In this document: positions 19,604 through 21,775 of the stretch, one piece after another
Layout: every line of letters begins with the position of its first letter
Position numbering within the stretch: the first letter of the stretch is position 1
From: a virus
DNA: 64,000 nucleotides
Strand: one strand, 5' to 3'
IMG/VR virus record: IMGVR_UViG_3300045973_000529
Coordinates: 64,001 to 128,000 of that record
Made by a program: the position numbers and the translations under genes
Notes under the pieces: generated by a model
What the model was told of the DNA's origin: nothing
The model's database searches: none
Seen by the model: only the letters and a program-made list of their open reading frames with translations

Positions 19604-20013
19604 CCACCTTCAAGCACTACGAGCTGGGGTCGCTGAAAGTAGGTGCGCAGCTCGCGCTCTCGAATCGGCTCTACGTCTCTGGTTGGACGTTGTCGAATCT
19701 CTACCGCGACTTCGTCGACGGTTACAGGGCCGAGGGCTCGCAGATCGTGATCGCAAGCCATGGCTCAAATCCAGCAACCCCAGTCGCCCTGGCGCTGTAC
19801 TACGGGCGGGACCATCAGGTCATGGCTTTCACGCGTCAGTCATTCCGCCGTCAGGGGCTGGCGGTCGAGTGCGTCAAGCGACTGAAGAACCTCCCAGAGA
19901 ACGTCGTCGCTGGTGAAGGCATTGATGGCACGCTCGAGTTCTGGCAGAAGGCCGGCATCCCAGCCCACGCCCGCGACTACAACTTTTGGCCAAGAGGTCA
20001 TCGCTTCGAATAG
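19600..20013 (+). CDS. GNAT-like acetyltransferase
   Basis: MAFTRQSFRRQGLAVECV resembles acetyl-CoA binding motif A; LEFWQKAG resembles motif B. Confidence 0.6.
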   Translation: MTTFKHYELGSLKVGAQLALSNRLYVSGWTLSNLYRDFVDGYRAEGSQIVIASHGSNPATPVALALYYGRDHQVMAFTRQSFRRQGLAVECVKRLKNLPENVVAGEGIDGTLEFWQKAGIPAHARDYNFWPRGHRFE

Positions 20014-20037
20014 CGGTCGGCGACACCAGGAATGCAC

Positions 20038-20057
20038 CAGGGACCCTAGGGTCCCTG
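20038..20057. repeat. perfect 20-bp palindrome CAGGGACCCTAGGGTCCCTG
   Basis: Self-complementary; 18-bp core identical at 37293-37310. Confidence 0.9.
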
Positions 20058-20118
20058 AGTTGTTTGGTACTACACCGACACCTTCGAGTGTCGCCGGCCT
20101 GGAACTGTTACATCTGCT

Positions 20119-20143
20119 GAAGAAAGCGGGGCCGTAGCCCCAC
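20119..20143 (-). terminator. intrinsic terminator for phoH unit
   Basis: Minus strand GTGGGGC-TACG-GCCCCGC then TTTCTTC, 6 nt after the phoH stop. Confidence 0.7.
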
Positions 20144-20149
20144 TGAAAC

Positions 20150-20902
20150 TTACGCGCGACGGCGGACTTGGCCGCCAGCGGAGACGCGCTCTTCAGGCGC
20201 GTCGAGGTGCGTGAGGAGCTCACGCACGAGTTCAGAACGTTGGATGTCGCGATGGGTGAACTGGATCACCTGAATCATGCGTGACTTCCCAGCCAAGCGG
20301 CGCGTCAGCCACTCAAGGCCATTCTCGGCGATACCGCGAAGATCGCACTGAGAACCGTCGCCGTTCACGACGAATGTGCTGTAGTTGCCGGCACGTGTGA
20401 CGAAGAGCTTGATCTGCTCGATCGTCGTATTCTGTGCTTCGTCCAGAATCACGTACGAGTTGTTGAACGTTCGACCACGCATGTACGCGAGCGGCGCGAA
20501 CTCGATCTTGCCGCTGTCCATGAGCTTCTTGGCCATGGTAACGCCGACGAGCTCTTCAAGCGCGTCGAGCAGTGGGCGGAGATACGGACTGATCTTCTCT
20601 TCGAAGGTGCCTGGAAGGAACCCAAGGCTTTCACCTGCTTCGCAGACCGGGCGTGTCAGCACGATCTTGGAAACTTCATTGGACAGAAGCTTCTCAACGC
20701 CAACAGCCATGGCGAGGAAGGACTTACCGGAACCTGCAGGACCATCGCCAATCGTCAGCGGCATTTGGCGCAGCGACTCAAGGTAAAGTTCTTGTGCAAG
20801 TGATTTCGGTTGTGGAGTGAAGCGGAGTTTGATAACCTTTGGACCCTCTTGGGAAATCGGTTGTGGATACTTGTTTTCGCGGTTGAGAAGCTTACGACCC
20901 AT
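20150..20902 (-). CDS. phoH: PhoH family ATPase
   Basis: GPAGSGKS, LTRP, LGFLPG, PLAYMRGRT, ILDEAQN, GD.SQCD, IQRS motifs; AGGAGG SD. Confidence 0.97.
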   Translation of the reverse strand: MGRKLLNRENKYPQPISQEGPKVIKLRFTPQPKSLAQELYLESLRQMPLTIGDGPAGSGKSFLAMAVGVEKLLSNEVSKIVLTRPVCEAGESLGFLPGTFEEKISPYLRPLLDALEELVGVTMAKKLMDSGKIEFAPLAYMRGRTFNNSYVILDEAQNTTIEQIKLFVTRAGNYSTFVVNGDGSQCDLRGIAENGLEWLTRRLAGKSRMIQVIQFTHRDIQRSELVRELLTHLDAPEERVSAGGQVRRRA

Positions 20903-20931
20903 GTGATCCTCCTACAGGACTGGGTGATGGC

Positions 20932-21089
20932 GAACTCGTCAGAGCAGGAGGTTGGCCTCCTGATGGCGGGCGATAACAGACAAACGGGCCGGAGTAAAAG
21001 GCTGTGCGACGATTGTTCGCACCTGTTGTAGGGGTTGGCCCTCATCTGCCTCGAGAACGATGCAGGCTTGTTGCTGCACCGGGGAGTTC
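20932..21089 (-). ncRNA. candidate structured cis-regulatory RNA in the phoH leader
   Basis: Closing stem GAACTC/GAGTTC enclosing three helices; see findings. Confidence 0.45.
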
Positions 21090-21102
21090 CTTGTGTTGGA
21101 CA

Positions 21103-21486
21103 TTAGTCCTGCTTGTAGGTAACGAACTTCATCCAATCGACGACGTTCTGTTCCTTGTTGTGCAGCATGCACTCACCAGCGGCGAGGCAGTCCAACAGGT
21201 ACTGCGCGAGCTTCACATGCTCAGCGTCCTTCATTTTCAACAGCGCTTCCTTGACTGCGGCTGACGTGCTGTCATCACCGTAGTTCACAGGATCTTCCAT
21301 CTGGAGATCGGCGCTCTTCAAGCCGTTCTTGAAGAAGCCACTGACCTTCGCGAGGACAAACAGCTGATAGGGGTTCGTGACCTTGCCGGCACTGACAATT
21401 TCCTGCAGCGTGAGATCGACGAGACGTGGAGTGTGCGTTGGAGCACCGTACACGGTATCGCTTTCGATCAGTTGATGGAGTTTCAT
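21103..21486 (-). CDS. hypothetical late protein
   Basis: 127 aa, MKLHQLIES N-terminus, downstream of minus-strand late box. Confidence 0.8.
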   Translation of the reverse strand: MKLHQLIESDTVYGAPTHTPRLVDLTLQEIVSAGKVTNPYQLFVLAKVSGFFKNGLKSADLQMEDPVNYGDDSTSAAVKEALLKMKDAEHVKLAQYLLDCLAAGECMLHNKEQNVVDWMKFVTYKQD

Positions 21487-21514
21487 AGTGCTGCCGGTTA
21501 GGTTGACGATGTGC

Positions 21515-21520
21515 TATTTA
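21515..21520 (-). promoter_or_regulatory. late promoter box TAAATA (minus)
   Basis: gcTATTTAgc on plus strand. Confidence 0.7.
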
Positions 21521-21526
21521 GCCCCG

Positions 21527-21532
21527 TAAATA
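21527..21532 (+). promoter_or_regulatory. late promoter box TAAATA
   Basis: gTAAATAg, back-to-back with the minus box. Confidence 0.7.
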
Positions 21533-21553
21533 GGTTGTGCCAAGGAGAGAACC

Positions 21554-21775
21554 ATGTCCGAGACCTTTGTTGATCAGCCTACGAACCCTATTCCTCCGCC
21601 AGACACCTGGCATGAGCTATCGTATAACCAATTGCTCGATGCTAAGACCCAACTTATGAACAAGCTCTACCTGGCCCGCGGGAAGCCTCTGTACCTCAAA
21701 CCGCTGAATACGGCGCTTGAGCGCATCGAGGCCTTCATTGCAGCGAAGCTGCAAGATCCGCGCGGTTTGGGTTAA
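21554..21775 (+). CDS. hypothetical late protein
   Basis: AAGGAG SD, 73 aa. Confidence 0.8.
   Translation: MSETFVDQPTNPIPPPDTWHELSYNQLLDAKTQLMNKLYLARGKPLYLKPLNTALERIEAFIAAKLQDPRGLG

Follow-up and report, generated by a model that had tools for sequence, protein, structure and literature searches.

The infC-rpmI-rplT (IF3-L35-L20) operon of E. coli has a long-range pseudoknot operator, and this L20 operator stands with those of T4 gene 32 and gene 43 among the established precedents for protein operators. In phages, the long-distance interaction between the coat and replicase genes of MS2 and the intercistronic hairpins of T4 are cases of structure-mediated translational coupling. In the SAM-II/SAM-V, preQ1-II and preQ1-III riboswitches, the Shine-Dalgarno (SD) sequence is taken into a pseudoknot or helix with a conserved upstream loop, and in the int-alpA RNA motif (RF02996), a phage mRNA leader found by comparative analysis, the loop of a hairpin or junction is the complement of the ribosome-binding site (RBS). 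Here we describe an RNA element that shares some traits with each of these systems and lies directly before phoH, which is among the most widespread auxiliary genes of phages and whose role there is, to our knowledge, not yet known. The locus belongs to a window of 64,000 nucleotides (nt) within the 190-kb virus record IMGVR_UViG_3300045973_000529, itself estimated to be about half complete; positions below are those of the window. The element represents an RNA family that has not been described before and is of a known type: a structured mRNA element occluding an RBS. With a probability of roughly 0.65, this conserved structured RNA of about 190 nt, carried on the phoH sense strand between phoH and an upstream gene X in one late transcript, limits initiation at phoH.

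The phoH gene occupies positions 20150..20902 of the minus strand, on which all the other features of the locus are also located, and encodes a PhoH-like ATPase of 250 amino acids (aa; Pfam PF02562, E = 7e-71; PHROG 170). Its start codon ATG is at 20902 and its SD sequence AGGAGG at 20913-20908. Gene X (21103..21486; 127 aa) lies upstream and ends with TAA, 200 nt before the phoH start. The element in this gap that serves phoH, hereafter called the leader, is composed of five helices, P1 to P5, and extends over 20894..21082, from just past the X stop codon to 9 nt inside phoH (231 bits with the covariance model R1 described below). A 54-codon open reading frame (ORF; 20939..21103) overlaps P1-P4, and its ATG shares bases with the X stop codon (TAATG). 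Folding of the single 208-nt sequence gives -68.8 kcal/mol with z = -2.0, and 5 of 200 dinucleotide shuffles fold equally well; this is only mildly better than chance and little proof alone, the real support for the structure being comparative.

PhoH was used as the query against viral, metagenomic and genome contigs, which yielded about 30 distinct related loci, most of them on contigs of 80-376 kb; these loci fall into two arrangements. In the long-gap arrangement (20 distinct contigs, including the window), some 170-205 nt separate phoH from X or from another upstream gene; in the short-gap arrangement (about 10 contigs), X stops 40-52 nt before phoH. One locus of the short-gap type (L256), but no long-gap member, was added by scanning genome_contigs. 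Among the matches listed, pattern scans for CAAGGGCNNATCCTAC and for TCAAGGGC...GCCCCNCTG in viral contigs gave chance hits, the model confirming only one contig, which was already known. The clade comprises, so far, about 20 long-gap and 10 short-gap contigs, all from uncultured phages, and its known range is narrow. The leader was not found in cultured phages by blastn or tblastn, their PhoH proteins are at most 49% identical, and there is no tractable isolate.

To align the leaders, plain MAFFT alignments of all members analysed with RNAalifold gave almost no signal, the variable hairpins being misaligned, and a covariance-model alignment was used instead. The model, R1, was built from the window and its closest relative and contains 47 pairs. 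With default filters it retrieved 18 members, and switching the filters off added two, which makes up the 20 distinct contigs including the window; in all of them its match sits immediately before phoH on the same strand. The 64-kb window and the whole 190-kb record each contain a single R1 match, and there is none upstream of 77 more distant phoH genes; the element is restricted to this phoH clade. On the R1 alignment, 92.4% of the pairing cells can pair, vs 66.3% after shuffling and 36-45% when the partners are slid. Both sides have changed in 40 of the 47 pairs, compensatory cells number 172 against 49.5 in shuffles, and none of 500 shuffles reaches any of the observed measures. The excess of G-U cells (44) over A-C cells (21) favours the sense strand of phoH as the strand that folds. 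Moreover, when the long-gap leaders, which range from 37 to 65% GC, are folded singly, most show the same P1-P5 layout.

The substitutions are spread over the first four helices. P1, a hairpin of 8 bp (21081-21074 with 21065-21058; core GTGCAG/CTGCAT), shows double changes in all 8 pairs, with 93% of cells pairing; a comparison of the window with L028, its nearest relative (96% for PhoH), already reveals two compensatory pairs in this hairpin. P2 is a long-range helix whose 5' strand (21037..21048; consensus AUCA-A-GGGC) pairs with a 3' strand at 20977..20990 (consensus GCCC-CUC-UGAU) that carries a bulge of 2-3 nt; double changes affect 11 of its 12 pairs. A K-turn or box C/D-like reading of this bulge was dropped on inspection by eye, the needed G-A pairs being missing. 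P3 (GTGCGA/TCGCAC, 21022-21017 with 21009-21004) differs in length between subclades and has double changes in 6/6 pairs (94% of cells pairing). P4 occupies 20937..20968 (20968-20956 with 20951-20937) and consists of an outer CGNCA/UGACG and an inner CAGGAGG/CCUCCUG part; with double changes in 11 of 12 pairs and 95% of cells pairing, the hairpin is kept and its sequence is not. In four relatives (L032:1140-1180, L017:5570-5610, L010:2950-2975 and L256:1138-1176), P4 is directly followed by a run of 4-6 U that is not present in the window; such a tract would fit an intrinsic terminator or attenuation between X and phoH in those relatives. Outside the helices, conservation of unpaired nucleotides across the family is limited to a CCUAC loop, the P2 bulge and the SD region, the other junctions varying between subclades.

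The fifth helix, P5, is local and contains the initiation region itself (20898..20924; 20924-20916 with 20910-20898). In the window it reads CCCAGUCCU - GUAGG - AGGAU - CAC - AUGGG, corresponding to the family form CCCAGUCCU-GUAGG-AGGAU-nnn-AUGGG, and it pairs the 3' half of the SD (AGGAU) and the start codon (AUGGG). P5 is predicted in every member folded alone. Its loop exposes GUAGG (20915-20911), which overlaps the 5' half of the SD AGGAGG (20913-20908), and the whole segment 20908..20915, GUAGGAGGA, is almost invariant in the 20 long-gap members. The internal loop that separates P2 from P3 contains CCUAC (21028..21032), the sole invariant loop and the exact complement of GUAGG, which makes it a candidate anti-SD or pseudoknot partner. 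Of the 20 members, 19 have both CCUAC and, at the SD, GUAGG; the exception, L006, combines CCUAA with UUAGG. In the sister, short-gap clade, the corresponding loop is CCUCC or CUCCU, vs GGAGG or AGGAG, and is there constrained by Pro-Ser codons. A CCUAC:GUAGG pseudoknot is thus possible, and we propose it by reasoning from this complementarity and one covariation event. The 3' side of the same internal loop (window ~20991-21003) is pyrimidine-rich in most long-gap leaders (CUUCCU, CUUUCU, UUUCCU or similar) and could be a second, wobble-rich anti-SD stretch facing CCUAC.

Part of this architecture had been noticed in a first-pass annotation of the window, made by a model from the sequence. The stems that it named are all present at their minus-strand positions, and P1, P2, P3 and the P4 hairpin are borne out as conserved helices by strong covariation in relatives. 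Its inventory therefore covers four of the five helices; P5 and the invariant CCUAC loop were absent from its description. On the other hand, the helix proposed to close the whole structure (GAACTC/GAGTTC, 21084-21089 with 20932-20937) is probably fortuitous and not conserved: L028 keeps the 5' arm GAACTC but has an uncompensated GAATCA as 3' arm, and the helix is not recoverable in other members. The annotation had also seen in P4 a switch, in which a decoy SD in the 5' arm and an anti-SD in the 3' arm, CCTCCT, would compete for the true SD of phoH. As a conserved device this does not hold, since GGAG is found in the 5' arm of P4 in 7 of the 9 members of the window's subclade and in L016, and the anti-SD run of the 3' arm in about 4 of 20 members. 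This switch is at most a local embellishment, and the conserved RBS contacts are those of the local helix P5 and, possibly, of the CCUAC loop.

A recurrent heptamer informs on the transcription context of the element. A CTAAATA box, a late-promoter-like motif, lies at 21515..21521 on the minus strand, 29 nt upstream of the X ATG. The window contains 10 copies of this sequence (3422, 3656, 5240, 21515, 22049, 39513, 43805, 52015, 54849 and 63672), vs 0.48 expected from shuffles, and none of them is in the leader. In the window and in relatives, CTAAATA sits about 30 nt upstream of gene starts. It looks like the late-type promoter box of this phage group, similar to the T4 TATAAATA box, and it also precedes X in L001, L004, L005 and L006. 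The transcript comprising X, the leader and phoH likely starts at the box before X; no sigma-70-like promoter and no intrinsic terminator were found inside the leader or the element. Given this box and the lack of internal promoter and terminator, the element is most likely intercistronic in an X-phoH transcript. Thus, the idea of a phoH leader survives as far as a structured RNA before phoH is concerned, but as an intercistronic segment of an X-phoH unit rather than a true 5' leader, the promoter-like box being upstream of X only. RNA-library contigs from freshwater metatranscriptomes agree with co-transcription: one of 231 nt spans X and the leader (20991-21221) with 2 differences, and another of 151 nt spans the leader and phoH (20832-20982) with 3 differences. 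These bridging contigs come from two studies and are 98-99% identical to the window; coverage is patchy and the uncovered parts are uninformative. Collectively, the strong covariation, the bridging of both junctions by RNA-library contigs and an ORF that lacks conservation at the protein level, as detailed below, support the general view of the first-pass annotation that a cis-regulatory RNA acts on phoH.

From this arrangement, we infer a repressive role. P5 would keep the initiation region of phoH, GUAGGAGGAU...AUGGG, paired and thereby limit translation initiation; the contact CCUAC:GUAGG would probably reinforce closure of P5, and P1-P4 would act as a scaffold presenting the anti-SD loop. 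How P5 is opened may differ between lineages. Ribosomes translating X in the short-gap clade would have to unwind P1-P3 along with one half of P4. An ORF starting from the X stop codon would, in the window's subclade, lead ribosomes through P1-P4 to about 10 nt before P5. Far-clade members without an ORF abutting X would need a protein or a ligand, or else express phoH at a low constitutive level. Upstream translation is one way of release, and the option best supported by the anatomy; the trigger, like the repression itself and the pseudoknot, is part of a model.

Several observations weigh against this interpretation. P5 and the proposed pseudoknot are mostly invariant, so that the covariation for the very contacts that matter is thin, with one P5 pair (alignment columns 293/310: GU 8, UA 5, AU 2, GC 1, UG 1) and one pseudoknot lineage; in the latter, L006, the change on the SD side is a one-base deletion and no clean substitution. 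The energy needed to open the phoH RBS is 13.9 kcal/mol, vs a median of 9.6 (standard deviation 4.0), which ranks it 7th of 30 crudely defined gene starts when the pseudoknot is not counted; according to this calculation, occlusion by secondary structure alone would be moderate, above average and not exceptional. The alignment behind the pair counts was fitted to the structure, which inflates the pairing percentages, although the margin over the controls is still large. The RNA-library contigs show neither the strand nor the ends of the transcripts, and DNA carry-over is possible. Finally, in the more distant long-gap members no ORF begins at the X stop codon, and upstream translation is consequently not a general release mechanism.

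Among the described systems, the L20 operator is similar in that a structured RNA located partly in an upstream coding sequence, as in the sister clade here, makes a long-range contact with the place where translation of the following cistron starts. There, downstream translation depends on both the fold and upstream translation. The element has no sequence or Rfam relation to the L20 operator, which is defined by the binding of L20, and in the window's clade it is free-standing and not coding. P1-P4 and the invariant loop could be recognised by a putative phage or host protein, for instance PhoH itself, X or a RegA-like repressor, that would stabilise or open the fold. A conserved scaffold with few conserved single-stranded nucleotides is typical of shapes recognised by proteins, and the element is strictly linked to one phoH clade; nothing in the analysis, however, points to a binding partner, and we consider such an operator rather unlikely.

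The first-pass annotation had favoured a riboswitch-like device. In such a reading, P1-P4 would form an aptamer for a metabolite or ion and P5 the expression platform, a conserved multi-helix fold being indeed placed directly before an SD-sequestering helix, and the U tract that follows P4 in L032, L017, L010 and L256 would be a second type of expression platform. The element resembles the SAM-II/SAM-V, preQ1-II and preQ1-III riboswitches in the proposed capture of the SD by an upstream conserved loop. It differs from them by the lack of a match to Rfam riboswitches, by its few conserved unpaired nucleotides and by a fold that is also coding in relatives. Indeed, the comparison with Rfam 15 that the annotation had suggested (cmscan, permissive filters) gave no match to any family, riboswitches, thermometers, leaders and ribozymes included, within 20894-21103 at E up to 10; the leaders of nine relatives were likewise without a match (E up to 1). 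Apart from CCUAC and the small bulge, the junctions vary between subclades, unlike those of known aptamers, and in the sister clade this fold is accommodated by a coding sequence. No result of the analysis favours a metabolite ligand. The scarcity of conserved unpaired nucleotides speaks weakly against ligand binding by a classic riboswitch aptamer, and taken together these features make a classic metabolite riboswitch less likely, to the point that we would expect one only with little confidence. The int-alpA motif is similar as a phage mRNA leader with a loop complementary to the RBS that was detected by comparative analysis, yet RF02996 matched neither the window (E up to 10) nor the nine relatives (E up to 1), and the element has another architecture, a single copy and a link to phoH only. 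Full-text searches of the literature brought up no publication that deals with a leader RNA of phoH or with translational coupling of phoH in phages.

Since the 54-codon ORF covers most of the element, it could be a real gene for a 54-aa protein, the RNA pairing being incidental. Its ATG is coupled to the X stop codon, the same frame is open in 8/8 near-clade members, and the ORF descends from the coding sequence of X. The substitution pattern, however, is not that of a protein. In six pairs of sequences, the ratio of nonsynonymous to synonymous substitutions (dN/dS) is 0.69-1.23 for the ORF, vs 0.06-0.14 for phoH and 0.08-0.21 for X in the same pairs, and the ORF peptides are 34-62% identical where the PhoH proteins are 78-95% identical. 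The 'synonymous' divergence of the ORF is lower than in the flanking genes, including phoH, as expected from a constraint at the nucleotide level. The peptides share just the residues encoded by the conserved RNA blocks and nothing between them. Moreover, the spacings between the blocks AAGGGC, CCUAC, GCCCCUCUG and GUAGGAGG differ modulo 3, so that the reading phase of a block depends on the member; in half of the family it is another one, and preservation of the frame is confined to the near subclade. L003 has a frameshift in the ORF, and in L001 the ORF is fused to phoH. It has no Pfam or PHROG hit and no tblastn relative among 41 candidate viral stretches, the large protein databases lying outside this search, and the compensatory changes preserve helices rather than residues. 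These data demonstrate that the ORF lacks constraint at the protein level and is not a conserved protein, which leaves the protein-gene explanation very improbable. The outcome that would have spoken for it, a 54-aa product conserved in relatives together with an absence of covariation, is thus the reverse of what was found on both counts.

The length of the ORF was also considered as coding evidence and rejected, since dinucleotide shuffles produce equally long open runs (p = 0.14-0.73). A second frame is fully open in the window leader, where a 96-codon ORF (20755-21045, minus strand) runs into phoH. The leader is poor in stop codons in all frames, and open frames carry little weight.

A variant of the proposed mechanism, compatible with it, gives a role to the translation of this ORF and none to its product. 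In such a translational relay, ribosomes ending on X would restart at the ORF ATG, melt P1-P4 and reach P5; the peptide would be irrelevant and phoH would be coupled to X. An ORF of 52-57 codons is present in all eight near-clade members with X, and it starts on the X stop codon or at most 7 nt from it, as TAATG, TGATG, GTGA (three members), TTGA, or an ATG or TTG within 7 nt. It ends at -33 to -42 relative to phoH, a position comparable to that of the X stop codon in the sister clade (-40 to -52). The exception is L001 (2800-3750), in which no stop codon ends the leader ORF before phoH, whose frame it shares; the ATG located 4 nt after the X stop opens a 317-codon frame that would yield an N-terminally extended PhoH. 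A +1 indel that distinguishes the window from L028 is offset by a -1 indel, which restores the frame. Under a null model that keeps the structure, the composition and the conserved columns, the probability of an open frame is 0.2-0.4 per sequence, and the product over seven lineages is 3.6e-4, a value that overstates the significance because these lineages share ancestry and are not independent. Together, these data are suggestive of a near-clade frame that is kept open for translation and not for its product. Against the relay stand the general paucity of stop codons in the leaders, with a longest run of ordinary length and the second open frame of the window, the absence of an SD before the internal ATGs, and the lack of an ORF at the X stop in most far-clade members. 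We regard the relay as possible but doubtful. It is reminiscent of coupling in MS2 and T4, where the downstream RBS is closed by pairing with a sequence that upstream ribosomes cross, and both the fold inside X of the sister clade and the relay ORF would fit such a scheme. Those systems are, however, simple two-strand interactions, whereas the element is a covarying domain of five helices that persists without an abutting upstream ORF.

The descent of the ORF from X became apparent when the two arrangements were compared. When a nucleotide hidden Markov model (HMM) of the leader is run against the short-gap clade, its whole length aligns with the final ~150 nt of X and the short spacer that follows (E of 5e-8 to 3e-4, the database being small). 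Conversely, an HMM of this short-gap region has two matching sites in the long-gap genomes, one in the leader and the other at the X 3' end. These reciprocal matches show the leader to be a paralogue of the X 3' end and suggest a tandem duplication as its origin. The short-gap clade has only one copy, which is predicted to take the same P1-P5 architecture inside the X coding sequence, with the X stop codon in the loop of P4. P2 is formed there by GAGC with GCUC instead of GGGC with GCCC, and its 3' strand encodes Ser-Ser-Ala-Asp-Trp. On the two strands of this P2, every third codon position is invariant, including those of six-fold Ser and Leu codons, while the third positions of the codons between vary in 3-4 ways. 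These frozen third positions appear as an RNA constraint laid over the reading frame.

The paralogy also raises the question of whether the leader is a functionless remnant of the tandem duplication of the X 3' end, left to neutral decay. Neutral decay would not yield helix-preserving double substitutions in 40 of 47 pairs, and CCUAC and GUAGGAGGA are invariant while the synonymous sites of phoH are near saturation (proportion of synonymous differences, pS, 0.57-0.80). Furthermore, the RNA blocks are kept in the three loci where X is absent or decayed. In L003, another gene replaces X upstream and a CTAAATA box directly precedes the element; L043 (920-1215) has an X with a ten-codon deletion and a frameshift, and a TATAAATA box; in L256 (940-1215), X is reduced to a 64-codon remnant. 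A mere remnant is accordingly the least credible of the explanations considered here. In L043 and L256, the X remnants, of 64-89 codons, are found behind a TATAAATA-type box, and the P2 strands, P4 and the SD region are retained.

In the PhoH tree, the short-gap clade is nested among long-gap lineages, but a monophyletic long-gap group is not rejected either (p-AU 0.12). The tree is compatible with either the free-standing or the embedded form coming first, and with duplication or deletion as the first step. One fuller scenario for these giant freshwater and soil phages would be that the fold first evolved in the 3' coding part of X, that duplication freed an RNA copy, and that this copy is now a sensor for a factor or ligand gating phoH translation; taken as a whole, this chain of steps seems to us improbable, if worth stating.

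Under the repressive role proposed above, a dedicated conserved element before phoH would mean that at least this phage clade regulates phoH tightly after transcription, and it offers a concrete object for probing the signal to which phoH responds, whether upstream translation, a protein or a ligand. It also provides an unusually clear example of a single RNA fold that occurs in two forms, embedded in a coding sequence with frozen synonymous sites and as a free non-coding duplicate with dN/dS near 1, and is therefore useful for studying the origin of regulatory RNAs from genes. If the fuller scenario above is true, the split of a coding sequence into a riboregulator would be a documented case of such an origin, together with a first handle on when phage PhoH is needed. 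The element brings no new principle of regulation but an unusually legible evolutionary history.

Two further features of the locus concern its flanks. Gene X has no Pfam family and no homologue among cultured phages by blastn or tblastn; its homologues begin with MKLHQ in both clades, and X is specific to this group of giant phages. At the other end, a perfect 20-bp GC-rich palindrome at window 20038-20057, about 95 nt past the phoH stop codon, is the sole terminator-like site in 19900-21700.

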